Source: Thermoflexia bacterium (GTDB lineage: Bacteria > Chloroflexota > Anaerolineae > B4-G1). From it: DNA of 64,000 nucleotides. A model generated the notes under the pieces. The model was not told the DNA's origin, searched no databases, and worked only from the letters and a program-made list of their open reading frames with translations. Below are positions 7,073-55,709 of this stretch, in pieces (position 1 is the stretch's first letter; each line of letters begins with the position of its first letter). The position numbers and the translations under genes are program-made. The DNA lies in contig DUEK01000004.1 in assembly GCA_011192155.1 (NCBI GenBank), forward strand, positions 1 through 64,000, in the 5' to 3' direction.

Positions 7073-7315
7073 ATGTCTATTTTGCACGTGCGGAATGTTC
7101 CCGAGCCACTGTATGCACGCTTGAAACAACGGGCAAAGACACAGCGCCGCTCGTTGAGCGCAGAAGTCGTCACCTTGCTGGAATGGGCCGTCGAGGAAGT
7201 AGAGCGTGCGTCGCAAGTTTCCCTGGCGACAATTCGTCGCCGTCGCTTTTTCGAGCCTGCCGCTGTCAACGCGCCTGATAGTACAACACTGCTGCGCGAG
7301 GACCGCGAGCGATGA
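7073..7315 (+). CDS. vapB: VapB-type antitoxin (ribbon-helix-helix/Arc-like)
   Basis: 80-aa protein (MSILHVRNVPEPLYARLKQRAKTQRRSLSAEVVTLLE...). Strong RBS. Stop overlaps the vapC ATG (ATGA). Confidence 0.7.
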   Translation: MSILHVRNVPEPLYARLKQRAKTQRRSLSAEVVTLLEWAVEEVERASQVSLATIRRRRFFEPAAVNAPDSTTLLREDRER

Positions 7316-9896: not shown

Positions 9897-11347
9897 TCCT
9901 CCTCTCGGGCCCATTCCGCCGGTACAGGCGGGATGAGTTCCTTCTCCATCAAAAAGTGGGTCATATCCTGCGCCTGGCGGATGGTATCTTTTGCCATAGC
10001 AAGCAACTCGTCGCGAGAAAAGCTCAGACGGGCCAGGCCTTGTTCCTGCGCCTTCACGCCGACCGCGGCCGCCTCGCGGGGAAAGACTTCCCAATCCGCC
10101 ATCGTCGGCAGGATGTGATCGTCTTCGATCCCTCGTTCCTCGGCGCAGCGAGCCAGTTCGCGGGCGGCGGCGACGGCCATTTCGTCGGTGATGGTCGTGG
10201 CCCGCACGTCCAGCACGCCGCGGAAGATACCGGGGAAGCCCAGCGAGTTGTTGATCTGGTTGGGAAAGTCACTGCGGCCCGTGCCCACGATACGCGCCCC
10301 GGCCTCTTTGGCTTCCCAGGGCCATATCTCGGGGATGGGGTTGGCGCAGGCAAAGATGATGGCGTCATCGGCCATCCCTTTCACCCACTCCGGCAGGATC
10401 GTGCCCGGCCCGGGCTTGCTGGCCGCGATACAGACGTCGGCGCCGCGCATGGCTTCTTTGATGCCGCCGCGCCGCCCTTCGGCGTTGCTGTTCTGGCAAA
10501 TGCGCCACTTATCTACGAACTCGATCTTGCGCTGCGCGATGTCATCCCGCTCTGGGTGCAGGATGCCCTTGCTATCGCAGGCGACGATGTGGCCGAACGG
10601 GACGCCGCTGGCCAAGATCAGGCGGAGTGTGGCAACGTTGGCTGCGCCGGTGCCGATGACGGCAAATTTGGCCTCCTCCACCTGCTTGCCCACCATCTTG
10701 AGCGCGTTGATCGCGCCCGCCAGGATGACGGTGGCCGTCCCCTGCTGATCGTCGTGCCAGACCGGAATTTTGACCTCAGGGTCGGTGCGCAGCATGTCGA
10801 GCACGCGGAAGCACTTGGGCTGTGAAATATCCTCCAGGTTGATTCCGCCGAAGGAAGGCTGGATCAGTTTGACGGCCAGCATGATGCGATAGGGGTCTTT
10901 GGTGTCCAGGCAGATGGGGACCGCGTCCACGCCGCCCAGGTATTTGAATAGCAGCGCCTTACCCTCCATCACTGGCAGCCCGGCCCAAGGGCCAATATCG
11001 CCCAGGCCCAGCACGCGGGTACCATCTGAGACGACGGCGACTGTGTTCCCCTTGTTAGTGTGCTCATAGACCAGGTTTTGGTCCTCGTGGATGGCGCGGC
11101 AGGGAGCGGCCACGCCGGGCGTGTACCAGATAGCGAAATCATTGACATCACGGATGACGCATTTGGGCGCGGTTTGTATCTTGCCTCGGAAGAAGGGGTG
11201 CAACCGCATCGCATCCTTAGCCGGTTCTTTGGCTTTGGCGAGTAATTCTTCTTTGGTAAACTTCTTGCTATCAGATGGATGCGGCCGCATCGCGTCCTCG
11301 GCCGTTTTTTTGGCCTTGGCCAGCAGTTCTTCTCTAGTTACTTTCAT
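9893..11347 (-). CDS. NAD(P)-dependent malic enzyme (small form) with in-frame N-terminal 27-aa tandem duplication
   Basis: Malic enzyme core (FRGKIQ...[15 protein letters not shown] Rossmann). Start MKV with RBS GGAAGGAG. Residues 4-30 and 31-57 are near-identical repeats. Confidence 0.8.
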
Positions 11348-11698
11348 GGGTTTACTCCTTCCTAAAAACAGTCTATTTGTTCCAAGTCTTTGACCGAAGG
11401 TAAGAGTGGCGAGAGCCTGCTGCGGGGCGGAGTATGATCGCAGTCGGTAGAAAGGGGAAAATCCCGACTGGGCGCGATGGAGGTCGCAGGGGTAGTTAGG
11501 CAACGCAAGATGCGGGGCGCGAGCCTGTATGCCATAGTATCATTATTGTAGCACCACTGTGACGGTAATACAAGTGATATGTGTCATCTTCACCTACGTC
11601 ACATTCCGCGTGTATCGAAAAGCGGGACATTCCCAGACGCGACTGGGAGTGTCCCGAAATATTGAGATGGTGCGATTTTTCGACTTGGGCAACTAGGA

Positions 11699-20921: not shown

Positions 20922-22880
20922 TTACGCTGCTTTGACGAGTTGTTCGACCGATATGATGGAACCGTATTTCGCTTTCAACGCTTCGAGACCATCTCTCTGC
21001 TCGGCATAGACCTGGAATAACTTGGCCGGGATGTTCTTTTCTTTCCCGTAAGCCTCTTCCTGGAGGTTAATCCGCGCCAGGATGTTGTCCACGTAGAACG
21101 CGAACTGTTTATTGTATAGTTCCCGTGGGTACTCTTTGCCGATCCCGGCAAAGAGCTCTTTGAGGTCATCGTACTTGGGTATAAACCCGATGGGCGTCTC
21201 AATCGCCTCGACGTCTCCGTGCGCCCGCAGTTCGAGCCAGCCCAGCCATACCTTCACGTCACGCTTCTCACCGAGCAGACCATTTCCCTCTCCGCCGCGA
21301 GCCTTGTGCGTCAGGAAATAGTTCAACCCGGCTATGATGGGTTTTGTCTTTAACTTGTCGGAATTAAAAAAGGTAAACTGGGCGTCCATATAGTCGGCCA
21401 GCGGGCCGGGGATAAAAGGCTCATTAGCCCAGGGCTGCCGCCGGACGCCACTGACCCCTACCTCCGTCTTGGTCGCCGCCGACATGATCGAAGCCCCAAT
21501 GACAACTCCCTGGTCAGGGTTCTTGGCGACCCAGACCGGCGGCATAGTGTCGCTATCCCGCCCGCTGTAGGTGATGACTTTTATCTCTGCCCCGCGCGGA
21601 TCCTCGGCCGCGGCCTGGTTATAGTTGCCGATGAATGTGTTATCCACCGTGCAGCGGGCGTTCGGATTAGAAAGCGGAATAGGCTCACCGTTCTCATTCG
21701 TTTTGCCTTCCCACCATTCGCCCTGAAAGTTGACGCCTTTCTTGGGGTGTTCCTCGCCGTTCCCGACCCAGTGCGGCACTCTGTTTTCGTCAATCAACAC
21801 ATTCGTCCAGATCACTTCCGCGCCTGGTTCGCGCAGCGCTTTGATCAAGTATGGGTCGCTTGCGCGGTTCACGTCCCGCACGATGCCAAAGATGCCCTTC
21901 TCCGGGTTGATAGCCCGCAGCGTCCCATCATCGGCGATCCACAACTGCGCCAGGTCGTCGCCGATGAAATCGGTGCCGACCATAGCCGTCGTGGTTTTCC
22001 CGCATCCCGAAGGCGCAGCTCCGGCGCAAAATGTCTTTCTCCCGCCGAGGCCGGTCAGACCGGTGATGAACATATGCTCCGAGAGCTTGTCTTCCTTTTG
22101 ATAATAGGTCGCCAGGTCAACCGCAAAACGATGGTTCCCCTTTTTCAACAGCAGTGTGTTGCCGGCGTAGGTGCAGAACATTGAGAAGGTCGTCAGCCAA
22201 CTCCGGTCCATAAACACGCGGGCGTTCGGTAGGTCCTCCGGCCTATTTGGCCCTTCACTGTGGACGTTGGTCAAGAACAGCCCCGCCCGTTCCGCCTCTT
22301 TGTCGAATTGGTCATAGACATTCCTGTACAGGATGTTGGCCGAGTGCATAACGTAGGTCGAGGTGGTGATCTCTAGCGCAGGGAGCGCAGCCGGAGCGCC
22401 GATAGGGCCACGGCTAAAGAATCCGATCAGCAAGGTCATCCCCTTGGCGATGCCGGTCATGTAGGTTTTGACGTACTCGTATGCTTCATCCCGAAGGATG
22501 CTCTTTGCCAAAGTGCTGGTCTCTTCGCCCTCGTTTACGATGTAGGACGTTCTATCAACGATGCGCGCCTGTTCCTGGCAAAGGTCAAAGTGGATCGTGT
22601 GATTCTTCATCGCCAGAGGCTTTTCCTCGCCTTTTTCGAGGCTCATTTCCCGGACTCGCTGAACGTCCGCCGTCGATCCGGTGTTCACGAAAACTGCATC
22701 AGGGCTGGTCATAGAAATGGCGTTGGCGATTTTCAGCAACGCTTTCTCGTTGGCGATCTGGCTCAGTTTGGCAACAGTTTCTTGATCGCACCTGGCCTCG
22801 AATAGAGCTTGTGCCTCGTCCAGGGTGTTGATCCCGCCGATCTCGGCCAGGATATCAATGCCTTTGTGCAGTTCTAGCAT
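20922..22880 (-). CDS. pckG: phosphoenolpyruvate carboxykinase (GTP)
   Basis: 652 aa. Kinase-1a/P-loop region CAGAAPSGCGKTTTAM and PEPCK-GTP family length and motifs. RBS AAGGAG. Confidence 0.9.
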   Translation of the reverse strand: MLELHKGIDILAEIGGINTLDEAQALFEARCDQETVAKLSQIANEKALLKIANAISMTSPDAVFVNTGSTADVQRVREMSLEKGEEKPLAMKNHTIHFDLCQEQARIVDRTSYIVNEGEETSTLAKSILRDEAYEYVKTYMTGIAKGMTLLIGFFSRGPIGAPAALPALEITTSTYVMHSANILYRNVYDQFDKEAERAGLFLTNVHSEGPNRPEDLPNARVFMDRSWLTTFSMFCTYAGNTLLLKKGNHRFAVDLATYYQKEDKLSEHMFITGLTGLGGRKTFCAGAAPSGCGKTTTAMVGTDFIGDDLAQLWIADDGTLRAINPEKGIFGIVRDVNRASDPYLIKALREPGAEVIWTNVLIDENRVPHWVGNGEEHPKKGVNFQGEWWEGKTNENGEPIPLSNPNARCTVDNTFIGNYNQAAAEDPRGAEIKVITYSGRDSDTMPPVWVAKNPDQGVVIGASIMSAATKTEVGVSGVRRQPWANEPFIPGPLADYMDAQFTFFNSDKLKTKPIIAGLNYFLTHKARGGEGNGLLGEKRDVKVWLGWLELRAHGDVEAIETPIGFIPKYDDLKELFAGIGKEYPRELYNKQFAFYVDNILARINLQEEAYGKEKNIPAKLFQVYAEQRDGLEALKAKYGSIISVEQLVKAA

Positions 22881-22925: not shown

Positions 22926-23345
22926 CTACTGCCCCACAGGGAATTGGACAAATCCTACGACGGAAAAGTGATGGTCGAAGGCGAACGCCTCCGTGAGTTC
23001 CCGTTGCTGCATCAGAGCGAAACTCACTGCGTCGGTATAGCTGAAATCCTGATCGTCGTAGCGGCGCAAAATATCGCGTGCCTGGGCTTCCAGCTTTTGG
23101 TCCGACCAGATACAATGAACAGAAGATGACTGTTCAATGATGTCCAGAAAGGAGATTGCCTTGTGATGCCCCAACTTCCAGACAAGGTTAGTGTACGTTT
23201 CGGAAACGATAAGGTTAGATATCAAGAGACGCCTTTTCTGGGCCAAGACGTCGCCGTAAAATTCTTTGGCGGAGAGATGGTACTTGTCTCTAGGATTAAT
23301 GATCGCAATCCAGGCCGATGTGTCTACAAATATCGGCTCATTCAT
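22926..23345 (-). CDS. vapC: PIN-domain toxin VapC
   Basis: IFVDTSAWIAIINPRD...SETYTNL...D PIN signature. 8-bp overlap with the upstream antitoxin gene. Confidence 0.8.
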   Translation of the reverse strand: MNEPIFVDTSAWIAIINPRDKYHLSAKEFYGDVLAQKRRLLISNLIVSETYTNLVWKLGHHKAISFLDIIEQSSSVHCIWSDQKLEAQARDILRRYDDQDFSYTDAVSFALMQQRELTEAFAFDHHFSVVGFVQFPVGQ

Positions 23346-23601
23346 TTTGACATTCTTCTACCAGATAGCGGTCATGGTTGACAGACCAATCTGTTGGGGT
23401 ATCTGCGTCTCCCCCGGCCAGCCCGATGAGCTGCCAGGCCGGGTCCTCCTCCACGGGCACGACCTCTCGCGCCAGGGATTCCAGCCCGCGCCGCAGCGCT
23501 TCTGCTTTTGAAACATTCAGCTTTTTCACCAACGTATCCAGGATGTTCTGATGTCTCGACCCCAGGTAAACCTGCACCGGTTTCTTTTCTAGTACGGCCA
23601 T
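23338..23601 (-). CDS. vapB: RHH/CopG-type antitoxin (VapB-like)
   Basis: 87-aa protein immediately upstream of and overlapping the PIN gene. N-terminal beta-strand plus helices (VQVYLGSRHQNILDTLVKKLNVSKAEALRRGLE). Confidence 0.65.
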   Translation of the reverse strand: MAVLEKKPVQVYLGSRHQNILDTLVKKLNVSKAEALRRGLESLAREVVPVEEDPAWQLIGLAGGDADTPTDWSVNHDRYLVEECQNE

Positions 23602-23714
23602 CGCCCTCTCCTTGCATTTAACAAAATGAATGTATCACGATGCATTAACTATACTACATTCAAATCCACCTGTCAAATCCAAACCGGCGTACTGGGGCGT
23701 GGAGGACAAGGCGA

Positions 23715-25103
23715 CTAGACGAAAATCTTGCCCGGATTCAGGATATTGTTCGGATCCCACGCCTGCTTGATCCGCTTTTGCATCTCAACCGCCACCGGCC
23801 CCAGCGCCATCTCCAAGTAGGGCCGCTTGAGCACGCCCACGCCGTGCTCGCCGGAGAGGGAACCGCCCAACTCGACCGCCACGCGGAACAAGTCGCCCAC
23901 CGCGCCCTCCACCCGCTCGTACTCCTCCGGATCGCGCTTGTCGAAGAGGATATTGGGGTGCAGATTGCCGTCCCCGGCGTGACCAAAGATGACGATGGGC
24001 AGGTTCCAGCGGGCCGAGATCTCTTTGATGCGGGTGATCAGCCTCGGGATGACGCTGTGAGGCACGGTGATGTCTTCGCCCAGCTTGTTGGGCCGGATGC
24101 GTCCCAGCGAGCCGGAGATGGAATGGCGAGCGTGCCACATCTCTGCGCTTTCCTCCGGCGTGGCCGCCACGCGCACATCGCGGGCGCCGTTCTGGCGGCA
24201 CACCTCGGCCACGATCTCTATGCCGCGCACGGCCTCTGCTTCGTCACCGTCGGTCTGGATGACCAGGATGGCCTCGACGTCCAGGGGCAGTCCCAAGTGC
24301 AGATAATCCTCCACGCTCTTGATGGACGTCTCATCCATGATTTCCAACATGGACGGCTTGGCTCCACTGGACAATACGGCGTTGATCGCTTTACCGGCGT
24401 CGGCCAGTTTAGGAAAGATTGCCTCGGCAGTACGCTCTGTCTCCGGCGGCGTGATAAAGCGCACCGTCACCTCGGTGATGATAGCCAGCGTGCCCTCGGA
24501 ACCGATCAGTAAATGCACCAAGTCGTAACCGGTGACGTTCTTGGTCGCCTTGCCGCCCACGCGCATGATGCGTCCATCGGCCAGCACCACTTCCAGGGCC
24601 ACGACATAGTGGCCGGTGATGCCGTATTTCAGGCAATGCGCGCCCCCGGCGTTGCAGGCGGCGTTGCCGCCCAGAGTGGAGTAATGGTCGCTGGAAGGAT
24701 CGGGCGGATAAAAGTACCCCTTACGGGCCAGTGCGTCCGCCAACTCCGACGTGATGATTCCCGCTTCCGCCGTGGCCATCATATTGTCGAGATCAATATC
24801 CAACAAACGATCCATGCGGGTCAGGGGCAAGACGATCCCCCCGCCGAAGGGAATCGATCCGGCCGACAGGCCAGTGCCCATCCCCCGAGGCACAATCGGA
24901 ATCAGCTCTCGATTGGCCACCTCGAGCACCTTCGAGACCTCCTGTGTGCTGCCTGGCAGAACGACCAGATTGGGCCGGGCGGATGTGAATGTAGAATCGT
25001 AAGAATAAGCCACCAAGTCCTCCGGCGAATTCAGCACGTATTGTTCGCCGACGATGGCCTCTAGTTCGTCAATCACTGCTGGCGACAGTTTGTTCTCAGT
25101 CAT
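23715..25103 (-). CDS. glcD: FAD-linked oxidase (GlcD/D-lactate dehydrogenase family)
   Basis: FAD-binding PCMH domain (VVLPGSTQEVSKVLEVAN...PRGMGTGLSAG) and C-terminal FAD-oxidase domain. Confidence 0.8.
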   Translation of the reverse strand: MTENKLSPAVIDELEAIVGEQYVLNSPEDLVAYSYDSTFTSARPNLVVLPGSTQEVSKVLEVANRELIPIVPRGMGTGLSAGSIPFGGGIVLPLTRMDRLLDIDLDNMMATAEAGIITSELADALARKGYFYPPDPSSDHYSTLGGNAACNAGGAHCLKYGITGHYVVALEVVLADGRIMRVGGKATKNVTGYDLVHLLIGSEGTLAIITEVTVRFITPPETERTAEAIFPKLADAGKAINAVLSSGAKPSMLEIMDETSIKSVEDYLHLGLPLDVEAILVIQTDGDEAEAVRGIEIVAEVCRQNGARDVRVAATPEESAEMWHARHSISGSLGRIRPNKLGEDITVPHSVIPRLITRIKEISARWNLPIVIFGHAGDGNLHPNILFDKRDPEEYERVEGAVGDLFRVAVELGGSLSGEHGVGVLKRPYLEMALGPVAVEMQKRIKQAWDPNNILNPGKIFV

Positions 25104-26292
25104 CGGACGGGTCCTCCAATTGTCTCAAGACCACCTCGGAGAGGTCAGTCACGCGGATGCGGATTTTCTCGCGGCGGGTAGCGCCGGATAGGGTGCGTTT
25201 GCACTGCTGGCAGGAGACGACGGTGTACTTGGCCCCGGCGTCCCGCGCCTGCTCCAACCTCCGACGAGGCAGCGATTGGGCCAACTCTCGATTGTAGGTC
25301 TCCAGATTGCCGCCGCCCCCGCAACAAAGCGAGTTCGCGTGATGGTCGGCCATCTCCACCAGTTCCAGATCGGGGATGGCTCGCAGCACGTCGCGCGGAG
25401 CCTCAAAGATGCCGCCCTTGCGGCCCAGGTCGCAGGAATCGTGATAGGTGACGGTGACTGGCCAGGGTTTCAAGTGCAGCCGTCCCGCGCGAGCCAGTTC
25501 GGCCAGCATCTCCGTCTCGTGCAGCACCTCCAGGCCATCCAGCGCGTCCTCGTCGAGCAGCTCCGGGTAAGTGTGCTTCCACATATGGTGGCAAGAGGGA
25601 CATGACATCACCACGCGGCTCGCGCCGGTGGCTCGCACTGCTTCGATGTTGCGCCGCGCCATCTCCACGGCCCGTTCGACCTCCCCGTTCAGATAGAGAG
25701 GATAGCCGCAGCAGCGCTCCTCGCCGCCCATCAGACCATAGTTCACGCCGGCCCGCTCAAAGATTTGGACCAGCGATTGGGGGATGCTGTAACTGGCCGG
25801 GAACAGCGACGATACGCAGCCCACAAAGTAAGCGACCTCGGCTTGTCCGCCGTGATCGAGGCCGGCGGGCGGCGACTCCAGGTTGGAGGTCCAGCCCAAT
25901 CGCTGTTCGTTTGCCTCGCCGGAAATGTTGCCGGCGGCGACGATGGTCTCGTCCAGCCGTTGCAGCGAGCCGGGCAGCAGGCCGCTGCGGGCCATGTCGG
26001 CGCGCACCTGAGTCAGGATCACGTCCAACTGGACGCCGCTGGGGCAGGCCTCGCGGCAGGCTTCACACATCAGACAGTTGTAGAACTTGTTGGCATAGAC
26101 CTCGCCGGTCGAAAGTTCGTTTTCTCCAACGGCGCGGTAGAGGGCCACCCGCCCTCGCGGCGACAGCGTCTCGATGCGCGTCTCACGGTAGACCGGGCAG
26201 ACCGCGAGGCATTTGCCGCAGCGGATACATTGGAGATATAGTTCTTCGGCGATCTCGCCGACGGTGCGTGTTTCTGTGTTGTCAGTTGTCAT
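25096..26292 (-). CDS. glcF: iron-sulfur subunit (GlcF/LutA-like; 2x[4Fe-4S] + two CCG domains)
   Basis: CIRCGKCLAVCP and CLMCEACREACP ferredoxin motifs, then Cys-rich CCG repeats. 8-bp overlap with glcD-like gene. Confidence 0.75.
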   Translation of the reverse strand: MTTDNTETRTVGEIAEELYLQCIRCGKCLAVCPVYRETRIETLSPRGRVALYRAVGENELSTGEVYANKFYNCLMCEACREACPSGVQLDVILTQVRADMARSGLLPGSLQRLDETIVAAGNISGEANEQRLGWTSNLESPPAGLDHGGQAEVAYFVGCVSSLFPASYSIPQSLVQIFERAGVNYGLMGGEERCCGYPLYLNGEVERAVEMARRNIEAVRATGASRVVMSCPSCHHMWKHTYPELLDEDALDGLEVLHETEMLAELARAGRLHLKPWPVTVTYHDSCDLGRKGGIFEAPRDVLRAIPDLELVEMADHHANSLCCGGGGNLETYNRELAQSLPRRRLEQARDAGAKYTVVSCQQCKRTLSGATRREKIRIRVTDLSEVVLRQLEDPSDD

Positions 26293-26317
26293 CTAGCACT
26301 CCAAATTTTGTGATTTT

Positions 26318-27616
26318 TTATCTGTTTGCATCGGAAACCACCGGCAGCGTCAACAGCGCGTGGGGCACGACGAGCACGTCCAGCGCGTTCCCCAATTCGC
26401 AGGCCGCCAATGCCAGCGCCTCCTTCATCGTCGCGGCGGGCGTCATCTTGCAATCCCGCACCACGTCCGGCGTCTCGCTGCCCACGATGACGACGCGGGC
26501 TTTTTCTAATACCTTGGCCATCACAAAGGCTCGCTGCTGGCCCGGCGGGTAGCCGTGCTTGCGGGCGTCGTCCAGGATAAATTGCACGTCGGGCGCGTCC
26601 CGCATCGCGGCCAGAAAGCGCCGCTCCCCCACGCCGTCGCCAGCCCCTTCCTCGCAGCGGGCCGGGATGATGAGAAACCCGCCCGGCTTGACCACCGGTG
26701 TCGGCGCGAAAAATAGATAGGATGCGGCGCGGCTGGCCTGGTAGAGGTTAGCGTCCTTGGGAAAGCCGGCCCCGCCGATGGCGACATCGTACTGGTGGGG
26801 GATGGGAACCTCGTAGATGGAGCGGGCGAACTCGACCAACTGGGCGTGGGTCTCCTCCATCTCCCCGGCCTTGACGCACACGACGCGCTTTTCGTCGTCC
26901 AGCACCACGTTGATGATAAAGCGCAGGTTGGCGCGGCGGGCGGCCTCGGTGACGGCGTCGTGGAAGGGGTTGCCCTCGATGCGGCCCAGCCGGGTGCGGG
27001 GATCGTCTATAAAGGCCGGGCCGTGAGTGTGCGCGATGAGCGCTTCGCCCGCCGCCCCCACCGCCAACGTCTTCCGCCCGCCAGAGTACCCGGCGTATTG
27101 GTGAGGTTCGACGATCCCGGTGGCGATCAGCAAGTCCGCCTCCACCGCCGCACGGTGAGCGGAGACCGGCGTCCCGCCGGGCGTCACGCCCAGGTCGACC
27201 AGCGCCTTGGGGTTCTGCGGCTCGTTGTCGATCACACGGTAGCGATCTACCACAGACTGACCCAGCTTGGCGACCTTTTCCTCGTCCGTCGAAGGGCGGT
27301 GCATACCGATGCCGCACAGCAGGGTGATGTCCTCGTCGCGGACGCCGGCCGCCTCCAGTTCCCGCAACAGCGCGGGGACGAGGAGTTGGTCGGGGCTGGC
27401 GCGGGTGATGTCGGTAAAGACGATGCAGACGCGGTCGCCAGATTTTGCCATCTCCCGCAGCGGCGGCGAGCCGATGGGATGGGTCAACGCTTCGGCGATG
27501 GCAGCTTTCACATCGCTCAACGGCTCAACTTGTTTGGAGGCGACCACCGTGCCGCGCATACCCGGCGGTAGGTCAAATTCAAGCGTTGATTTACTGTACG
27601 GAACGTGATATTTCAT
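26318..27616 (-). CDS. larA: LarA-family (nickel-pincer-dependent lactate racemase-like) protein
   Basis: 432 aa with DUF2088/LarA N-terminal domain architecture. First gene of an operon with the glcF/glcD-like genes. RBS AAAGGAG. Confidence 0.65.
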   Translation of the reverse strand: MKYHVPYSKSTLEFDLPPGMRGTVVASKQVEPLSDVKAAIAEALTHPIGSPPLREMAKSGDRVCIVFTDITRASPDQLLVPALLRELEAAGVRDEDITLLCGIGMHRPSTDEEKVAKLGQSVVDRYRVIDNEPQNPKALVDLGVTPGGTPVSAHRAAVEADLLIATGIVEPHQYAGYSGGRKTLAVGAAGEALIAHTHGPAFIDDPRTRLGRIEGNPFHDAVTEAARRANLRFIINVVLDDEKRVVCVKAGEMEETHAQLVEFARSIYEVPIPHQYDVAIGGAGFPKDANLYQASRAASYLFFAPTPVVKPGGFLIIPARCEEGAGDGVGERRFLAAMRDAPDVQFILDDARKHGYPPGQQRAFVMAKVLEKARVVIVGSETPDVVRDCKMTPAATMKEALALAACELGNALDVLVVPHALLTLPVVSDANR

Positions 27617-27636
27617 ACAGACTCCTTTCTTATTAC

Positions 27637-27650
27637 CCCACCAATGATGT
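27637..27650. promoter_or_regulatory. 14-bp palindrome TGATGTAAACATCA immediately upstream of the larA RBS (operator candidate)
   Basis: Perfect inverted repeat of GntR/FadR-like shape (GT-N-AC core), 20-34 nt upstream of the larA ATG. Confidence 0.3.
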
Positions 27651-27971
27651 AAACATCACCTAGCGTGGGTGTTACTGTAGCACAGACCTTCTAACGAGGC
27701 AAGTGCATATCATCACCCGCGACGGTGTATAACATCACAACGATAGTGCTGCCAAAAATTCGCGAATGTGAGCGAAACTGAAGCACTTGAACAAATCGCA
27801 CAAAACGTGGTAACCTCAAGCATCGGGAGGTGTAATCGTTCAGATGCCTCCCCTTTTTCTAACCGCAGAGGGCGCTGAGATGATCAAAAAGAAAGAACTC
27901 GACATGCTCTGCGGTAAAACGGGCACCTGAACGGTTACGCGGAATTCGCTTGTCATTATCAAATCTCTGAA

Positions 27972-29012
27972 TTACATCGTCACGACAACGCGGTACGTAT
28001 CGGATCGCAGGGCGGCCTGCAAGCCCTCCTCTAGCTTCTCAAAGGGTAAAATCAGTGAGATGAACGGTTTGAGGTCAACCAACCCCTGGGAGATCATGCG
28101 CACGGTTTGGAGCACGTCCTCTTTGTCCTGGCTCATTGTGCCGGTCAGCACGATCTCTTTACTGTGAAAGGTGTTGGGGTCAATCGAGATCTTGTCGCCG
28201 CGCGGGTGGATGCTGGCATAGATGTGGACGCGCCCGCCCTTGGCGACCGCTTCCACAGCCTGCTCCACCGCCTGGGCCGTGCTGGCCGCGCAAAAGACCA
28301 CGTCCGCGCCGCGGCCGTTGGTTGATGCCTTCACCTGGCCGGCAAACATCTCTTGGGTGGGATCAATGACCTCATCGGCGCCCATCTCCTGGGCGAAGGC
28401 TGTTCGTTCGGGGTTAGGCTCGCTGATGATGACGCGGGCGCCGATCTGCTTGGCTAGCATCAGGTGGAACAGGCCCATGATGCCCGCCCCAACGACGACC
28501 ACATTGTCGGTTCGCTTCACACCCGCCTTGCGCACACTGCGCAGAACGCAGGCCAGTGGCTCGGCGAGGCATATCTCCTCGAACGGCGCATCGTTGTTGG
28601 CCTTGTAGAGCTGATAGTCTTCGAGCAAGATGTACTCTGCCAGCCCCGCCGGGCCGGGCACGTCCGTCTCGCGGAAGGGTTTGCGATTGTTGTCGCAGAT
28701 GTTATCCAGTCCGCGCCGGCACGATTCACAGTAGCCGCAGCGCGTCAGCGGCGAGGCCATTACCCGGTCGCCTATTTGTGTGTCCGTGTAGACCTGACGG
28801 CCCAGTTTGACCAGTTCGCCCGAGACCTCGTGCCCGCCGGCCAGGGGATAAAAGTGCTCCTCGCCGGTGTACACCCGCTGCTCCCAGGTGCATAACGCGC
28901 ACGCCTTGACTTTGACCAACGCCTGGCGGGGGCCAGGTTCAGGGATAGGGAGTTCGTCAAAGCGAATCTGTTTAGGCCCGACAAAAACCGCTCGTTTACA
29001 AGTTCCTGCCAT
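27972..29012 (-). CDS. zinc-dependent alcohol/polyol dehydrogenase (MDR family)
   Basis: Catalytic Zn (C..H..E) and structural Zn (CGYCESCRRGLDNIC) motifs, Rossmann GAGIMG. Start MAGTCK with RBS AAGGAG. The ORF-track extension to 29069 overlaps the hairpin. Confidence 0.8.
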   Translation of the reverse strand: MAGTCKRAVFVGPKQIRFDELPIPEPGPRQALVKVKACALCTWEQRVYTGEEHFYPLAGGHEVSGELVKLGRQVYTDTQIGDRVMASPLTRCGYCESCRRGLDNICDNNRKPFRETDVPGPAGLAEYILLEDYQLYKANNDAPFEEICLAEPLACVLRSVRKAGVKRTDNVVVVGAGIMGLFHLMLAKQIGARVIISEPNPERTAFAQEMGADEVIDPTQEMFAGQVKASTNGRGADVVFCAASTAQAVEQAVEAVAKGGRVHIYASIHPRGDKISIDPNTFHSKEIVLTGTMSQDKEDVLQTVRMISQGLVDLKPFISLILPFEKLEEGLQAALRSDTYRVVVTM

Positions 29013-29036
29013 TGATGACTCCTTTATTGCAAAATC

Positions 29037-29083
29037 AGAAACCAGGTTTTTCTGTAAGCGAAGCGGCAAAAACCTGGTTTCTC
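29037..29083. repeat. REP-like hairpin, family A (AGAAACCAGGTTTTT-17 nt loop-AAAAACCTGGTTTCT)
   Basis: 15-bp perfect inverted repeat. Overlaps the aldolase stop codon and sits upstream of the dehydrogenase RBS. Confidence 0.6.
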
Positions 29084-29084
29084 T

Positions 29085-29879
29085 CTACTTGAGGTACTCC
29101 AGCGCCGCGTCCACACTCGCATCCTCGTGGATAATGGCCGCGATAGCGGCCGTCATCTTGTCCGGCTCGGGATAGCGCCAGATGTTCCGACCGACCGCGA
29201 CGCCGCTGGCGCCGGCCTGCATCGACTCGTGAATCGAGTTCAGCAGATCGCGGGGGGCCTTGGACCTGCCGCCGCCCAACACGACGAGGGGCACGTACAC
29301 CTGTTCACAGATAGCGCGGAAACTCTCCACGTCGCCGCTGTAGGTGGTCTTGATGAAATCCACACCAAGTTCAGCGCCGATGCGGCAGGCGTGGCCGATA
29401 TTCTCCGGCGTCCACATTTCGGTCGGGTTCTCGAACCCACCGGGCAGCATCTCGGCCATCACGGGTACGTTCCACTCGGCGCATTGAGAGATCAAATCAG
29501 ATAGGTATGGCAGCGTCACCGACTCGTACACTGAGCCTGGCATACCCATACAACAGACAGCGTCGGCTCCAACCCGTAGCGCATCGTAGACGTCGTATAT
29601 CAACTGCATCGGCCCGCGCTCCTGGGCCAACAACGAACCGCCGCCATCGACGCGCAGGAGGATGCCCATAGCGCCGATCTCTTTGGCAAACCGCGTGACG
29701 ACGCCATAGGTCGTCAGCATACCGTCCGCGCCGCCGGCTCGAATCTTGCGGATGACCTGGCCCGGTCTCTCCAACCCTTCCATCATACCAAACACAGCCG
29801 GATGGTCCATCGCGACGATCAGCGTCTTGCCGTCCTCGCGAAAGATGTGGTTCCAACGATGGGTTTTGAGTCCGATCAT
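29085..29879 (-). CDS. class I (DhnA/archaeal-type) aldolase family protein
   Basis: 264 aa with Schiff-base lysine context DFIKTTYSG and (beta/alpha)8 pattern. Confidence 0.7.
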   Translation of the reverse strand: MIGLKTHRWNHIFREDGKTLIVAMDHPAVFGMMEGLERPGQVIRKIRAGGADGMLTTYGVVTRFAKEIGAMGILLRVDGGGSLLAQERGPMQLIYDVYDALRVGADAVCCMGMPGSVYESVTLPYLSDLISQCAEWNVPVMAEMLPGGFENPTEMWTPENIGHACRIGAELGVDFIKTTYSGDVESFRAICEQVYVPLVVLGGGRSKAPRDLLNSIHESMQAGASGVAVGRNIWRYPEPDKMTAAIAAIIHEDASVDAALEYLK

Positions 29880-29914
29880 TCTTTGTTCTCCTTTGTGCTC
29901 TGTGATGTGAAAAA

Positions 29915-29950
29915 GTGAAACGTGAAACTTGATCGCGTTTCACGTTTCAC
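29915..29950. repeat. perfect palindrome GTGAAACGTGAAAC-N8-GTTTCACGTTTCAC (family C)
   Basis: 14-bp arms, between PTS gene stop and aldolase start. Built from the same GTGAAACG/GTCAAACG heptamer-like units found at 55611..55698 and 56204..56237. Confidence 0.55.
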
Positions 29951-29969
29951 GAATCACTTGGCGCCGTTG

Positions 29970-31751
29970 CTAGAAGAGCCCGATCTCGATGGCCTCGCCT
30001 GTTTCCATATTGAGGCCAGGCCAAATGGGATAGGAACCCAACACACCAACCAGGATAATGATGATCATAATCGTCGTCGGCGACACGTTCTTTTTGGCGA
30101 CCAGCCACCAGATGAGCAGTACCAACAGCAACGGCAGCAGATTGGGCATAAAGCTATCTATGATCGACTGAATCTGGAACGGAGTACCGCCAATCATAAA
30201 GGCCACCGAAGTCGAGAGACTAACGAACTGTACGACCAGCGCGCCCATGATAAAATTGCCCAGCACGCCCGCGCCGGTAATGACGCGGTTCAGCGTGCCG
30301 CTCCTCAGGATATTGGTGACAGCTGCGCGTCCCTGCTTGTACCCCTGCCACCAGATGAACCAACCGCCGCCCCAGATACCGGCCGCCATCAAAACGATAA
30401 AGACGATGGGACCGAGAATGCTGCCGCTGGTCGCCTGGGCGATATTCCCGCCCAGCGCGATGCTCATACCGATGGAGAGCGCGATGGGGATCAGGATACC
30501 CTGCTGAAGTGTGTCGCCGATACCCGCCATCGGCCCCATCAGACCGGTCTTTACTGCGTTGATGGCGTCATCGCTGATGTCGGCTCCGGCCGCGCGCTCC
30601 TCTTCCATCGCAATGACAATACCGTGAATCACACCACCCGCGTCCGGCTGCGTGTTGAAGAAAACCATGTGGCGCTTGAGCGCGGCGCTGATATCTTCCT
30701 TGCTCTTGTACAATTTCTTGATGATGGGCGTCATACTGTGCATAAATCCCATGCCCTGCATACGCTCCCAGTTGTAGGTCGAGTGGGAGAAGAATAGCCA
30801 GCGCACAAAGGCCCGGAAGACGTCATTTTGCGTGAGCAGGCCGGGCGCTTTACGTTCCTCGGCGCCCTCGATCACTCCTTCGCTGCCAAACCCTTCAGTG
30901 AACAGCACGTGGACGTATGCCATGCAGGCGCCGATAATGGCCATCACCAGTAGATTGGCGCTCCCACTCATCATTGAGGTGACGAGAAAGCCCACGAAAA
31001 AGTAGGGCCAGACGTTGCCCTGGAACAGGAATTTGAGGTTGAGCGCGATACCCAAAGCCGCGAGCATGCCGCTGGCAGCATATAGCCCGCTCATCACCCA
31101 GATAGCGTTCGCGTCAATCCATTCCAGCGCTTCGGCGACTGCGGTGGAACCCAGATAAGCGGCAATCATCACTGGCACTGCATAGATCAGGAACAGGAAA
31201 GGCTGGGAGTAGATATAGTTACTGCGTGCCGCTTTCTCAATATTCCCTTCCTCAGCAAACTTGTCCGCCCAGTGGGGGATGATGGAGCACGTAGACATAC
31301 GCAGCGACCAAGCCAGGCTACCCAGCAATCCCAGCGGCGCAGCCACTGCCAACGCTGCGTCTGCGCCCAAACCGCCGCCCAGCGCCAGTGCCGTGCCCAG
31401 GTAACCTGCCAGTCCAGGGTCACCGGGCAGCGAGCCGCCCGCCGAGATCCATCCCAGGTAGAGCACGTTGATGTTGGCGCCAATGGCGACCCCTTCACCG
31501 GGCCGTCCCATCACGATGCCGACCAGCGCGCCGGCGACCAACGGGCGGTAGAGCGCAGTAAAACCGAGGTTGGCGAACCAGGGCGACATGGAAAAGTAGT
31601 ACAGAATGCCGATGATGAGGGCCATCACGAGATTCATGCGCATCGGCTCCTCTTGCGTCACTGGCGCAGCCTCGACCACGACGACGCTCGCCGCCATCAA
31701 CAACATACTAACAGCCATAGCTATGCCGATTTGCTTCTTATTCACTTTCAT
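29970..31751 (-). CDS. PTS mannose/fructose/sorbose-family permease, fused IIC-IID
   Basis: 593 aa. N-terminal half resembles EIIC(Man). C-terminal half contains the EIID hallmark VFFNTQP. RBS AAGGAGAAG. No EIIA/EIIB/HPr/EI in window. Confidence 0.6.
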   Translation of the reverse strand: MKVNKKQIGIAMAVSMLLMAASVVVVEAAPVTQEEPMRMNLVMALIIGILYYFSMSPWFANLGFTALYRPLVAGALVGIVMGRPGEGVAIGANINVLYLGWISAGGSLPGDPGLAGYLGTALALGGGLGADAALAVAAPLGLLGSLAWSLRMSTCSIIPHWADKFAEEGNIEKAARSNYIYSQPFLFLIYAVPVMIAAYLGSTAVAEALEWIDANAIWVMSGLYAASGMLAALGIALNLKFLFQGNVWPYFFVGFLVTSMMSGSANLLVMAIIGACMAYVHVLFTEGFGSEGVIEGAEERKAPGLLTQNDVFRAFVRWLFFSHSTYNWERMQGMGFMHSMTPIIKKLYKSKEDISAALKRHMVFFNTQPDAGGVIHGIVIAMEEERAAGADISDDAINAVKTGLMGPMAGIGDTLQQGILIPIALSIGMSIALGGNIAQATSGSILGPIVFIVLMAAGIWGGGWFIWWQGYKQGRAAVTNILRSGTLNRVITGAGVLGNFIMGALVVQFVSLSTSVAFMIGGTPFQIQSIIDSFMPNLLPLLLVLLIWWLVAKKNVSPTTIMIIIILVGVLGSYPIWPGLNMETGEAIEIGLF

Positions 31752-35708: not shown

Positions 35709-36824
35709 TCAGCCGCTTTGGGAAAGGTGCTGCAGGCGGGCGGCGCACACGCGCGCGGGGAGCACGCGCACGCCCAGCCCCGGCCCGGTGGGCACAGAGA
35801 GCGTCGAATCCTCGTTGAGCGTAAAGTTTGGTTCAGCGACATCTTTGCCCTCGGGGTAGTAACGGATCGAAGCGGAGATGTCGCCGGGCAGGGCAAAGTT
35901 GGGCAGCGCGGCCACGGCTACGTTGGCCGCCCGCCCCACGTTCGTCTCCAACATGCCGCCGCACCAGACCGGTACGCCTCGCTCCACACCCAGGTCGTGT
36001 ATCTGCCTGGCGGCGGTCAGGCCGCCCACGCGCCCTACCTTGATGTTGATGATGCGGCAGGCCCCGATATCCAGCGCCCAGCGGGCGTGCTCCGGCGAGT
36101 GGATGCTCTCATCCAAGCATACGGGCGTGCGGAGTTGGGCTTGCAACTTGGCATGGTCCACGATGTCGTCGTGGTGAAACGGCTGCTCAATGAGCAGCAG
36201 ATCGAACTGATCCAGCTCGCGCAGAGTAGGGGCGTCGGCCAGGGTGTAGGCGCAGTTGGCATCCACTTGCAGCGGCAGGTCGGGCCAGCGCTCACGCACA
36301 GCACGCACCACATCCACATCCCAGCCCGGCTTGATCTTGAGCTTGATGCGCCCGTACCCCTCGTTCACGTGCTGCGCCACCCGCGCGAGCAGTTGGTCGA
36401 GCGTCGGCTCAATGCCCACGCTCACGCCAACCCTCACCCGCTCCGCCTGCCCTCCCAACATCTCGGACAGGGATACACCTTGCGCCTGCGCCAACAAGTC
36501 CCACACCGCATTCTCCAGCGCGGCTCGCGCCATCGGGTGGCCTTTTACCGGGCGGAAGCGGGCCACTACATCGGCGGGCGAGGTCACCTCCTGCCCCAGC
36601 ACAGCCGGGATGAGGAAATCATGCAGCACGTGCCAGGCAGTCTCGATAGTTTCATACGAGTACCACGGCCCGTCGCCGGCCACGCACTCGCCCCAGCCGG
36701 CAAGCCCCTCCGCGTGGACAGTCACCAGGATGCAGGGGCGGTTGACCTCGCGCCCAAAGCTGGTCTCGAATGGGTGCGCCAGCGGTAGTTCGATATGATG
36801 TAGTTCGATGCGTTCAATTTTCAT
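35709..36824 (-). CDS. enolase-superfamily MR/MLE-subgroup enzyme (N-succinylamino acid racemase / dipeptide epimerase-like)
   Basis: KxK (KLKIKPGW), metal ligands D (QVDAN), E (IEQP), D (LDES). C-terminal barrel residues. Confidence 0.8.
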   Translation of the reverse strand: MKIERIELHHIELPLAHPFETSFGREVNRPCILVTVHAEGLAGWGECVAGDGPWYSYETIETAWHVLHDFLIPAVLGQEVTSPADVVARFRPVKGHPMARAALENAVWDLLAQAQGVSLSEMLGGQAERVRVGVSVGIEPTLDQLLARVAQHVNEGYGRIKLKIKPGWDVDVVRAVRERWPDLPLQVDANCAYTLADAPTLRELDQFDLLLIEQPFHHDDIVDHAKLQAQLRTPVCLDESIHSPEHARWALDIGACRIINIKVGRVGGLTAARQIHDLGVERGVPVWCGGMLETNVGRAANVAVAALPNFALPGDISASIRYYPEGKDVAEPNFTLNEDSTLSVPTGPGLGVRVLPARVCAARLQHLSQSG

Positions 36825-41010: not shown

Positions 41011-42048
41011 ATGTTGGAGAAAATGAGAAGCTGGCGACCGCCCGATCATTGGCTCAAGATCACGACCATTGATTGCCACACCGCAGGCGAGCCGTTCCGC
41101 GTCATTACCGGCGGTTATCCCGATCTGCCGGGCGATACTATCCTGGCCCGCCGCCGCTATGCACGCGAGCATCTGGATCACCTGCGCACCGCGCTGATGT
41201 GGGAGCCGCGCGGCCACGCCGATATGTACGGCTGCATCGTCACCCCGCCCGTCAGCCCAGAGGCCGATATCGGCGTGCTCTTTATGCACAACGAGGGGTA
41301 CAGCACCATGTGCGGGCACGGCATCATCGGCATCACCACGGTGGCGCTAGAGACCGGCCTGCTGCCAATGACCGCGCCAGAGACGGTGATCAAGATTGAC
41401 GCCCCGGCGGGGCTGATCACGGCTCACGCGCGGGTGGCCGAGGGGCGCGTGAGAAGCGTCTACTTTCACAACGTGCCCTCGTTTGTCCTGGACTTGGACC
41501 AGACGGTCGAGGTGGCGGGCCTAGGCGAGGTGCGCTACGACCTGGCCTTTGGCGGCGCGTTCTACGCTTACGTGCAGGCCGAGGAGGTCGGCCTGACCTG
41601 CGCGCCGGATAACTTTCGCGCCTTTATCGAAAAAGGGCTGGCCATCAAGCGGGCTATCGTGGCCAGCCGGCCCATCCCCCATCCTTTCGAGGAGGATTTG
41701 AGTTTTCTCTACGGCCCCATCTTTATCGGGCCGCCGATGGAGGCGGATTCGCACAGCCGCAACGTGTGCGTCTTTGCCGAGGGAGAGGTGGATCGCTGCC
41801 CGACCGGCACGGGCGTCAGCGGGCGGCTGGCGATTCATCACGCGCGGGGCGAGCTAGGCGTGGGTGAATCTATCGTCGTCGAAAGCATCATCGGCACGCG
41901 CTTTAGCGGCCGCGTCGTCGAGACCACCACCTTTGGCCCTCACCAGGCCATCATCCCAGAGGTGGAGGGCGCGGCCCACATCACCGGCCGCCACGAGTTC
42001 TTGATTGATCCCGACGACCCGCTCAAGGATGGGTTTATCCTGCGCTAA
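41011..42048 (+). CDS. proline racemase-family enzyme, Cys/Thr type (predicted trans-3-hydroxy-L-proline dehydratase)
   Basis: First catalytic motif STMCGHG retains Cys. Second motif DRCPTGTGVSG has Thr where racemases/epimerases have the second Cys. RBS ACGGAGGAACA. Confidence 0.7.
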   Translation: MLEKMRSWRPPDHWLKITTIDCHTAGEPFRVITGGYPDLPGDTILARRRYAREHLDHLRTALMWEPRGHADMYGCIVTPPVSPEADIGVLFMHNEGYSTMCGHGIIGITTVALETGLLPMTAPETVIKIDAPAGLITAHARVAEGRVRSVYFHNVPSFVLDLDQTVEVAGLGEVRYDLAFGGAFYAYVQAEEVGLTCAPDNFRAFIEKGLAIKRAIVASRPIPHPFEEDLSFLYGPIFIGPPMEADSHSRNVCVFAEGEVDRCPTGTGVSGRLAIHHARGELGVGESIVVESIIGTRFSGRVVETTTFGPHQAIIPEVEGAAHITGRHEFLIDPDDPLKDGFILR

Positions 42049-55698: not shown

Positions 55699-55709
55699 GA
55701 GAGGAAACG

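Follow-up and report, generated by a model that had tools for sequence, protein, structure and literature searches.

A LarA group 25 homologue, predicted to racemise a polar 2-hydroxyacid, in an operon with a GlcD-like dehydrogenase in Anaerolineae

Introduction

What is the substrate of a protein that is annotated as a lactate racemase but lacks the pocket of one? This question is raised by a larA-like gene that heads a three-gene operon in the first 64,000 nucleotides of contig DUEK01000004.1 (assembly GCA_011192155.1) from a Thermoflexia bacterium of the Anaerolineae, a stretch referred to here as the window. Most subfamilies of the LarA superfamily do not yet have an assigned substrate, and the family of the window protein carries the public annotation 'nickel-dependent lactate racemase'. 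From its sequence, the LarA homologue is predicted to be a 2-hydroxyacid racemase or epimerase that depends on the nickel-pincer nucleotide (NPN), and a substrate with a polar or anionic side chain is proposed with moderate confidence. The fuller proposal, that a polar or acidic 2-hydroxyacid, with malate favoured, is racemised and then oxidised D-specifically by the products of one catabolic operon, is given roughly an even chance of being correct. The three genes are:

26318..27616, minus strand: larA-like gene, first of the operon, 432 aa, Lar_N + LarA_C (Pfam)
25096..26292, minus strand: Fe-S/CCG subunit, 398 aa, 4Fe-4S dicluster and two CCG domains (Pfam)
23715..25103, minus strand: GlcD-like flavoprotein, 462 aa, FAD_binding_4 + FAD-oxidase_C (Pfam)

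An earlier interpretation made from the letters alone (the sequence-only reading) had described a compact minus-strand operon at these positions, and this was borne out by the open reading frame (ORF) positions, the Pfam domains and the spacing. The larA stop and the Fe-S start are separated by 25 nt that include a GGAG ribosome-binding site, and the glcD start, which has GGAGGA before it, overlaps the Fe-S stop by 8 nt (ATGACTGA). A gap of 355 nt lies upstream of larA, followed by a gene for a Zn-dependent alcohol dehydrogenase, and the 113-nt gap downstream of glcD holds the near-consensus TTGACA-17-TATAGT promoter of an antitoxin-like ORF and a PIN-domain toxin. Because the genes are tightly packed and the flanking gaps include a separate downstream promoter, the trio is regarded as a self-contained operon. 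The window DNA is about 60% G+C. As set out below, the sequence-only reading was right in outline, with a racemase feeding a D-specific dehydrogenase, and probably wrong in its example substrate, L-lactate, and in treating the absence of maturation genes and a palindrome as notable.

Cofactor and catalytic residues of the LarA homologue

The domain architecture of the LarA superfamily is complete in the window protein, with Lar_N (PF09861; 1.4e-61, 207.7 bits, cut-off 23.3) followed by LarA_C (PF21113; 1.9e-15, 57.6 bits, cut-off 25). Its best match in the PDB is the broad-spectrum LarA 9EID (2e-76, 261 bits), and the malate racemase Mar2 (6D6Z) matches with 212 bits. Residue equivalences were taken from gap-free HMMER alignments to 9EID, 6D6Z, the LarA of L. 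plantarum (6C1W/8EZF) and the LarA apoprotein of Thermoanaerobacterium (2YJG). Numbered by L. plantarum LarA, they are:

D72: D69 in the window protein
R75, phosphate contact: R72
H108, catalytic: H106
H174, catalytic: H172
K184, cofactor tether: K182
H200, nickel ligand: H198
Y294 / Q295: Y292 / Q293

The sequence-only reading had named the loss of the cofactor-binding Lys and His residues as an objection to a LarA function; the alignments place K182, H198 and the H106/H172 pair where they are expected. The cofactor residues K182, H198 and R72, together with H106, H172 and D69, are invariant in 120/120 close homologues, and many representatives with as little as 35-40% identity also keep the NPN-binding and catalytic residues. 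Among database clusters, the best 120 share 83-100% identity with the window protein and are named Chloroflexi, Chloroflexota or Anaerolineae. An identical protein (P0001, 'MAG: nickel-dependent lactate racemase [Chloroflexi bacterium]') is encoded, in the same gene order, on a 46-kb ENA contig and a 4.7-kb JGI contig.

The substrate pocket and LarA group 25

The specificity positions of this superfamily comprise the pair of residues that follow H174, the one just before K298, and W358/T359 (PMC7583248, PMC11770544). In that order, they are occupied as follows:

Window protein: Q173, Y174; S295 (then R296); Q361, R362
Lactate racemases: F, F; V; W, E/Q (PMC11770544)
Malate racemases: variable after H174; H/Q, K at W358/T359 (PMC11770544); Q before K298 in Mar2
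2-Hydroxyglutarate racemases: Y, F after H174; H/Q, T at W358/T359 (PMC11770544)
Gluconate epimerases: E, V after H174; A, H at W358/T359 (PMC11770544)

The segment G-Q-Q361-R362-A-F of the window protein aligns gap-free to G-A-H350-K351-A-A of Mar2, and G-Q-Q-R-A-F aligns equally gap-free to D-Q-W-[E/Q] of three lactate racemases. In LarA numbering, Mar2 K351 differs by one residue between the 2020 and 2024 papers, and pairwise alignments are used here. The hydrophobic pocket of lactate racemases (F175, F176, W358, then E/Q) is not present, its places being taken by Q173, Y174, Q361 and R362. In the malate-racemase pattern of H/Q followed by K, Q361 fits and R362 supplies Arg instead of Lys.

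These comparisons bear on lactate utilisation, the reading closest to the public annotation. Here LarA would racemise L- and D-lactate, and the GlcD/Fe-S pair would be a D-lactate dehydrogenase whose product, pyruvate, is converted to phosphoenolpyruvate (PEP) through malic enzyme, malate dehydrogenase and PEP carboxykinase (PEPCK). In its favour, 9EID, the closest solved LarA, racemises lactate among other substrates (PMC11851776), and true lactate racemases are most often encoded beside a flavin adenine dinucleotide (FAD) dehydrogenase (group 1, COG0277 at 35%; Desguin et al., 2020). The pocket, Q,Y / S,R / Q,R, stands against the hydrophobic F,F / V,K / W of lactate racemases (PMC11770544, PMC7583248), and the NCBIfam model for LarA (NF033504) scores 347.6 bits against a cut-off of 460. 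The example substrate of the sequence-only reading is accordingly disfavoured on both pocket and score, and the lactate reading as a whole is considered unlikely.

The top NCBIfam score is that of LarAH6 malate racemase (NF052593; 369.2 bits, cut-off 500), followed below LarA by LarAH5 (NF052595; 325 bits, cut-off 462) and LarAH10 (300 bits, cut-off 540). Because the protein falls under the cut-off of every equivalog, by these models the window LarA homologue belongs to no characterised NCBIfam equivalog.

A match is found in the comparative literature. The signature D69 R72 H106 H172 Q173 Y174 K182 H198 Y292 Q293 S295 R296 Q361 R362 equals the 'Group 25' rows of Dataset S2 of Desguin et al. 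(2020; Sci Rep 10:18123, PMC7583248), a group whose members include Rcas_2707 of Roseiflexus and Htur_2912 of the haloarchaeon Haloterrigena. In the logos of that paper, the Q-R of group 25 shares its columns with the 'GHK' motif of malate racemases (PMC7583248). In condensed form, DRHH-QY-KH-YQ-SR-QR, the string is invariant in 120/120 close homologues and is found again in many 50%-cluster representatives whose identity is as low as 35-40%; the closest such representatives outside the Anaerolineae set are 37-58% identical to the window protein. The subfamily is marked by its unusually strong conservation, the K298R exchange, the group 25 signature and its abundance, with relatives in at least 530 species-level genomes of GTDB, almost all of them Anaerolineae or Chloroflexota. 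Literature searches found no paper characterising group 25, an Anaerolineae LarA or LarR.

The flavoprotein and its Fe-S partner

The Fe-S subunit combines an N-terminal 2x[4Fe-4S] ferredoxin-like domain (Fer4_8, 3.9e-13) with two CCG stretches (7.6e-33), and it is presumed to be the electron exit of the dehydrogenase. It falls under all NCBIfam cut-offs (LdhH C-terminus 171, TfrB 156, GlpC 139 and GlcF 96 bits, the last with a cut-off of 333). The flavoprotein likewise stays below the TIGR00387 glcD cut-off (470 bits, cut-off 568), and its PDB matches are the 'glycolate oxidase' 9QGZ (303 bits), A. woodii LctD (7QH2, 276), mouse LDHD (245) and human D2HGDH (172). A GlcDEF glycolate oxidase was rejected as a description of the pair on the two scores, GlcD 470 < 568 and GlcF 96 < 333, and because no GlcE-like gene is present. 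An Lct-type lactate cluster (LctBCD plus a racemase) was rejected as well, since neither the window ORFs nor the recurrent neighbours have electron-transfer-flavoprotein (ETF) or permease domains.

The residues of the metal and glycolate-moiety site, R326, H375, H382, E419 and H420, are all kept in the GlcD-like protein, and its side-chain subsite is informative. In LDHD this subsite is hydrophobic (W351, I407, S365, V101), whereas the D2HGDH subsite is made up of polar and cationic residues (Thr390, Lys401, Tyr432, Asn443) to which the distal carboxylate of D-2-hydroxyglutarate or D-malate, both of which are oxidised, is bound; in GlcD and D-lactate dehydrogenases hydrophobic residues replace Thr390 and Asn443 (PMC10589216, PMC7801405). 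The two positions, given as Arg+4 and His+2, read:

Window GlcD-like protein: S330 and N384
Bacterial 3PM9: S and N
LctD: L and Y
9QGZ: Y and L
LDHD: W (W351) and I (I407)

S330 and N384 occupy the Thr390 and Asn443 positions of D2HGDH, and F373 occupies that of Tyr432. Together with the nearby R335 and K340, S330 and N384 are kept in about 35 of 38 GlcD homologues linked to the LarA homologue (LarAH), and two unlinked paralogues differ. As far as sequence can tell, the pockets of both operon enzymes are polar and point in the same direction, and neither fits the definition of a characterised malate or 2-hydroxyglutarate enzyme. For lactate the flavoprotein gives a divided answer: its overall similarity, nearest to glycolate oxidase, LctD and LDHD, favours the lactate/glycolate group, and Ser/Asn at subsite B speaks against it, D-lactate enzymes having Trp/Leu/Tyr/Phe and Ile/Tyr/Leu there.

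The Fe-S partner has been exchanged among three lineages. Relative to the window protein (25096..26292), the Fe-S proteins of L003, L010, L020, L022, L036 and L041, which are loci of relatives described in the next section, fall into a window type (75-80% identity), a type of 52-57% and a GlcF/LdhH-like type of 27-29%. Because GlcD identity stays at 55-87% while that of the Fe-S partner ranges over 27-80%, the electron-exit module looks interchangeable.

Gene neighbourhood in relatives

A scan of one genome per GTDB species yielded 530 stretches encoding LarA relatives, and the best 80 of the 530 were analysed; their proteins are 73-88% identical, and all come from metagenome-assembled genomes (MAGs) of Chloroflexota bar one labelled Acidobacteriota. 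Neighbourhoods were derived from tblastn searches and from a codon-log-odds gene caller for which confirmed genes served as the training set. Fe-S and GlcD genes lie on the same strand within four genes in 35 of the 65 loci that have at least three downstream genes. Where at least four genes flank larA on each side (44 loci), Fe-S, GlcD and an Ldh_2-family gene occur together in 19, Fe-S and GlcD only in six, Ldh_2 only in two and GlcD only in one. A second sample comprised 80 JGI metagenome loci (57-88% identity), retrieved with the distant clade member P0128, a query that mostly returned the Anaerolineae family through a shared EPHQYAGY pattern and so furnished an independent synteny sample. 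Of the 42 metagenome loci in which sufficient downstream DNA is available, 19 have both Fe-S and GlcD and six more have either one. At 57-70% identity the gene orders vary and new ones appear, for example Ldh_2(-) GlcD LarA and LarA GlcD; the survival of the LarA-GlcD linkage through such rearrangement argues for functional coupling. The scheme put forward in the sequence-only reading, a racemase followed by a D-specific FAD/Fe-S dehydrogenase yielding a 2-keto acid, agrees with the domain content, the translational coupling and this recurrence (35/65, and 19 plus six partial of 42).

Association of LarA homologues with Fe-S (COG0247) and FAD (COG0277) proteins has been tabulated for groups 1, 4 and 6 (Desguin et al., 2020, Table S1), and for group 1 a context of LarA with COG0277 and ETF is also on record there. 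Such an association as a whole is accordingly established already, and what seems to be new is that it extends to group 25.

Two arrangements predominate. Class A (80-88% identity), to which the window belongs, runs Ldh_2, (23S-rRNA-intervening-sequence-type protein), LarA, Fe-S, GlcD, (vapBC), PEPCK, malic enzyme, Pyr_redox_2 and M20 peptidase. In the window, tblastn gave no match to Ldh_2, which is also missing from L007/L106 and L098. Class B (73-77% identity) has an aldehyde:ferredoxin oxidoreductase (AFOR), an IolN-like hydrolase, an unknown protein and a cupin divergent from LarA, with Zn-dependent alcohol dehydrogenase, Fe-S, GlcD and Ldh_2, and an IclR-family regulator on the opposite strand. 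The highest scores of the Ldh_2 partner, where it is present, are to L-sulfolactate dehydrogenase (251 bits, cut-off 500) and malate-type dehydrogenases; as the Pfam name indicates, the family also includes L-lactate dehydrogenases, a point for the lactate reading. No lactate permease or EtfAB genes were found in the window or in relatives, which counts against it.

The two central-metabolic members of the conserved block in the window are:

20922..22880, minus strand: GTP-dependent PEPCK (NF003253, 539 bits, cut-off 504), downstream syntenic neighbour
9893..11503, minus strand: malic enzyme (Pfam malic + Malic_M), part of the conserved synteny block

A vapBC-like insertion separates the window operon from PEPCK, and a two-component system and an ABC transporter split the malic enzyme from PEPCK. 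In relatives, most class A loci have a PEPCK, of either the GTP or the ATP type, after glcD, malic enzyme follows PEPCK in L003, L006, L008, L010 and others, and malic enzyme also follows the module in the class B loci L052 and L147. A functional tie of these two enzymes to the operon is something we only infer.

The PEPCK slot itself is variable in kind. The GTP type occupies it in the window (20922..22880), L006, L007, L010, L017 and L018, and an unrelated ATP type occupies the same slot in L003 (14112..15764), L008, L021, L024, L029 and L079, an in-situ non-orthologous replacement within one synteny block.

The vapBC-like pair between glcD and PEPCK (22926..23601) consists of an 87-aa ORF and a PIN-domain protein, with its own near-consensus promoter-like site (TTGACA-17-TATAGT) at 23648..23676. 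The insertion is also found in L006, L007, L017 and L031. In ten class A loci, among them L003 (9568..9996), ldh2 and larA have between them a gene for a four-helix protein of the 23S-rRNA-intervening-sequence type (PF05635); tandem CCTGAAA-like heptamers stand just before the larA start, and a paralogue is encoded elsewhere in the window (55674..56213).

The IolN equivalog (3-dehydro-scyllo-inosose hydrolase, 490 bits, cut-off 245), AFOR, cupin and a 304-353-aa protein without a Pfam match recur beside LarA in 15 GTDB loci and three arrangements. The set is divergent from larA in L036, L041, L043, L052, L056, L066, L073 and L083 and on the same strand in L035 and L069; it is also found in L063, L067, L074 and L084.

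Maturation genes larB, larC and larE

The absence of maturation genes from the window had been presented as an anomaly. It is true of the 64 kb: about 58 ORFs compared with Pfam contain no AIRC/LarB, DUF111/LarC or LarE-type domains, tblastn with verified LarB, LarE and LarC of relatives gave nothing at E<1e-4, and the sole PP-loop protein in the window is a PAPS reductase. It is not anomalous, since motif searches of the fetched relatives' loci, followed by NCBIfam scoring, located larB-larE-larC directly after a LarA–ADH–Fe-S–GlcD–Ldh_2–IclR cluster (ADH, alcohol dehydrogenase) in two Anaerolineales MAGs (L041, 17064..19827; L036, 16866..19629). In L041 the scores are 306 for LarB (cut-off 175), 296 for LarE (150), 206 for LarC (90) and 156 for LarC2 (50), and the L036 copies are 90-96% identical to those of L041. 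A lone larC lies in L039 (10461..11603), 7 kb from larA. The presence of larB-larE-larC beside the cluster in L036 and L041 indicates that the lineage makes the NPN cofactor and that the genes are not always clustered; in the genome from which the window derives, larB, larC and larE are expected to lie outside the 64 kb.

The promoter region

Upstream of larA the following elements were recognised:

27622..27626, minus strand: ribosome-binding site AGGAG, 5 nt upstream of the larA ATG, from sequence reading
27645..27658, no strand assigned: inverted repeat TGATGT-AA-ACATCA, situated within the predicted 5' leader, after the -10 and before the ribosome-binding site
27674..27702, minus strand: putative promoter, -35 TTGCCT (27697..27702), 17-nt spacer, extended -10 TGCTACAGT (27674..27682)
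27703..27716, minus strand: box 2, GTGATGATATGCAC, family consensus GTGA-N6-TCAC, abutting the -35 hexamer and centred near -41.5
27725..27738, minus strand: box 1, GTGATGTTATACAC, which precedes the first operon gene at a corresponding position in 14 aligned species

A simple promoter scan did not pick up the TTGCCT/TGCTACAGT promoter, which was found by reading the sequence. An alignment of the 14 species (A2) gives GTGACGTTATGCAC – N8 – GTGA-N6-TCAC-TTGCCC – N17 – TGCTACAnT, in which the GA of GTGA, CACTTG, and the TG and TA..T of the -10 are invariant. A search for the box in 1.24 Mb of related loci returned 14 intergenic matches, six of them upstream of the first operon gene: two before LarA in L007 and one before Ldh_2 in each of L008, L010, L032 and L051. 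The half-sites of box 2 recall the CRP/FNR site consensus TGTGA-N6-TCACA, and the LarR of L. plantarum is reportedly a Crp/Fnr-type regulator. Transcription would start from the conserved promoter, and boxes 1 and 2 would probably be bound by a CRP/FNR-type regulator encoded elsewhere. As the sequence-only reading had stated, no regulator gene is adjacent; comparison of the window ORFs with Pfam found no CRP/FNR, GntR or IclR regulator gene anywhere in the window.

The sequence-only reading had instead singled out a perfect 14-bp palindrome at 27637..27650 as the operator. The position was off by 8 nt, TGATGTAAACATCA lying at 27645..27658, and the element is a 6-2-6 inverted repeat, TGATGT and ACATCA flanking an AA that is not self-complementary. 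That it is the operon operator, bound by a GntR/LutR-type repressor, seems doubtful. Its place between the predicted -10 and the ribosome-binding site is typical for a repressor site, its pattern has no other match in the window, and a third related box, GTGATGTTTACATC, overlaps it and resembles box 1, GTGATGTTATACAC. However, the palindrome is kept only in the same-species contigs L001 and L002 and is missing from L007, L106 and L098, which have the promoter and boxes 1 and 2; in L007, another species with an 88% identical protein, identity of about 85% extends over both boxes and the promoter and is lost exactly at the palindrome. The conserved boxes sit 45-95 nt further upstream. Furthermore, the window holds 22 repeats of the 6-2-6 kind where about 15.6 are expected, the exact pattern with at most one mismatch occurs at least once in 11 of 100 shuffles, and no GntR or LutR gene is found nearby. 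The repeat may be a species-specific third weak site or the tip of a leader hairpin. For the predicted larA 5' leader (27614..27680, minus strand), folding gives an extended hairpin whose tip is the palindrome (-18.5 kcal/mol, z = -1.96; 9 of 200 shuffles do equally well); this hairpin is not conserved in L007 or L098, whose leaders are longer and different.

Proposed function and its alternatives

The LarA homologue would use NPN, with K182 as its tether, H198 as its ligand and R72 holding it, and the H106/H172 acid/base pair would interconvert the L and D forms of a 2-hydroxyacid, as the conserved residues suggest. By homology, the GlcD-like flavoprotein would oxidise the D form to the 2-keto acid, with R326, H375, H382, E419 and H420 forming its metal and glycolate-moiety site, and electrons would pass to the CCG/Fe-S subunit and onward to an acceptor. 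We infer, in other words, NPN dependence, D-specificity of the flavoprotein and the direction of electron flow from known relatives. Were the product oxaloacetate, it would feed the PEPCK and malic enzyme that follow the operon.

Malate is favoured on four grounds: the motif G-x-[H/Q]-[K/R]-A is similar to the one found in malate racemases, no NCBIfam model scores higher than that of malate racemase, the Ldh_2 partner is best matched by L-sulfolactate and malate-type dehydrogenases, and oxaloacetate and malate are substrates of PEPCK and malic enzyme. The specific version, in which the group 25 LarA is a malate racemase that, with a D-malate-specific FAD/Fe-S dehydrogenase, constitutes an NAD-independent route from L-malate to oxaloacetate feeding PEPCK, is put forward tentatively and is considered unlikely to hold in full.

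A number of observations weigh against a polar substrate, against malate or against the operon scheme. Within the LarA homologue, the catalytic or substrate-binding K298 is replaced by R296, the motif being YQxVK or YQAQK in LarA, Sar and Mar2 and YQASR here, with Arg throughout the clade, and no characterised member has Arg at this position; because the positive charge is kept, activity is still plausible. R362 is Arg where malate racemases carry Lys, the protein is under the cut-off of the malate-racemase models (369 < 500), and the closest solved LarA overall, 9EID, is an aliphatic broad-spectrum enzyme. Group 25 itself is listed as of 'unknown function' (Desguin et al., 2020). D2HGDH is overall a more distant match of the flavoprotein than glycolate oxidase, LctD and LDHD are, and the critical Lys401 is absent at the aligned position, which is G342, with K340 two residues earlier. 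At the level of gene context, 16 of the 44 fully flanked loci have none of the partners, the orthologue standing alone in unrelated contexts, and the IolN/AFOR/cupin linkage of class B hints at a sugar- or cyclitol-derived acid in those lineages. The larBCE genes were sought for the source genome within the 64-kb window, where they were not found, and the regulator and transcription start proposed above are our deductions. Finally, PEPCK and malic enzyme would also suit lactate assimilation through pyruvate: lactate is possible because these enzymes could serve the step from pyruvate to PEP.

A different polar 2-hydroxyacid processed by the same two steps, such as 2-hydroxyglutarate, 3-sulfolactate, glycerate, tartrate or a keto-/hydroxy-acid made by the IolN-like, AFOR and cupin cluster of class B, is rather unlikely but has slightly better prospects than lactate. 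The polar pockets of both enzymes suit it, as do the D2HGDH-like Ser and Asn of the GlcD partner, the best score of the Ldh_2 partner (L-sulfolactate dehydrogenase, 251 bits, cut-off 500) and the linkage of IolN (490 bits, cut-off 245), AFOR, cupin and the unknown protein to LarAH in 15 GTDB loci. A Zn-dependent alcohol dehydrogenase, with a weak match to IolM, lies upstream of larA in the window and downstream in class B. On the other side, 2-hydroxyglutarate racemases carry Y,F,[H/Q],T with no cationic residue (PMC11770544), gluconate epimerases have small residues (E,V,A,H) for hexonates where the window pocket is bulky, no sulfolactate or sulfopyruvate genes (suyAB, comDE) were seen, and the window has no IolN-like gene. 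The synteny of PEPCK and malic enzyme points to C4 acids.

The recurrent partners, the PEPCK/malic-enzyme neighbourhood and the matching polar pockets make the function directly testable. If the polar substrate is correct, a whole clade now annotated 'lactate racemase' gains a function, with consequences for D/L-hydroxyacid handling by widespread anaerobes; if the substrate is lactate, the finding is ordinary. If the malate route is correct, the two enzymes would be a functional analogue of malate:quinone oxidoreductase, relatives with Ldh_2 could run a malate/oxaloacetate cycle that passes electrons of NADH to a membrane or Fe-S acceptor, and a nickel-pincer enzyme would have a central-metabolic role in a very abundant uncultured lineage.

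Other features of the window

Upstream of larA and on the operon strand (27972..31751) lie genes for a fused PTS mannose-family IIC-IID protein (593 aa), a DeoC/LacD-family aldolase and the Zn-dependent dehydrogenase, whose best match, below cut-off, is the scyllo-inosose 3-dehydrogenase IolM; together they form an unusual sugar-uptake set for Chloroflexota. A second FitA-like/PIN pair is encoded at 7025..7767, a protein of the mandelate racemase/muconate-lactonising-enzyme family at 35709..36824 and a proline racemase family protein (384.7 bits) at 41011..42048. Rfam matched no known RNA family anywhere in the window.

Comparison with known systems

Among the known systems nearest to the operon, LarAH group 25 has a logo, D R H H Q Y K H. 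Y Q S/T R. G Q R, that is reproduced in the window protein, with the motifs VEPHQYAGYSGG, NLYQASRAA and GxQRA[FY] held in common. In the 2020 survey the group comprised eight genomes with no informative neighbours, only a helicase COG, (Desguin et al., 2020), whereas the gene in the window and in hundreds of Anaerolineae adjoins those for Fe-S/GlcD, Ldh_2, PEPCK and malic enzyme. The malate racemases Mar2/LarAH6 (6D6Z), Mar1/LarAH5 and LarAH62 share the fold, NPN and catalytic residues of the window protein. In helix alpha14, G-A-H-K-A of Mar2 corresponds to G-Q-Q-R-A, a polar and then a cationic residue in both, and malic enzyme is also found near LarAH group 6 (15%; Desguin et al., 2020). 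The differences are that Mar2 has Lys at the K298 and K351 equivalents where the window protein has Arg at both, Y,K in the loop where it has Q,Y, and Q before the K298 equivalent where it has S.

For the dehydrogenase, GlcDEF and other GlcD plus Fe-S enzymes likewise join a GlcD-type FAD subunit to a 2x[4Fe-4S] + CCG module. Split or fused D-lactate and D-2-hydroxyglutarate dehydrogenases of this make-up include Dld-II of Shewanella, DVU3027/28 of Desulfovibrio and YdiJ of E. coli. The window pair differs in having no GlcE and Ser/Asn at subsite B, and in scoring below the cut-offs for GlcD, GlcF, YdiJ and LdhH. Human D2HGDH (6LPN) has the catalytic Arg, His, His, Glu and His in common with the flavoprotein, in which Ser and Asn stand at the Thr390 and Asn443 positions; it differs in that its Lys401 aligns with Gly and its Tyr432 with Phe, and it matches with only 172 bits. 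The operon shares its logic with L. plantarum LarA (5HUQ) and the A. woodii lct cluster, in which a racemase channels the L form to a D-specific flavoenzyme of the VAO family. We take the lct cluster to consist of the FAD dehydrogenase LctD, EtfAB, a permease and a LarA-type racemase. In the window operon the electron partner is instead a CCG/Fe-S protein, no permease is encoded and the pocket is not hydrophobic.

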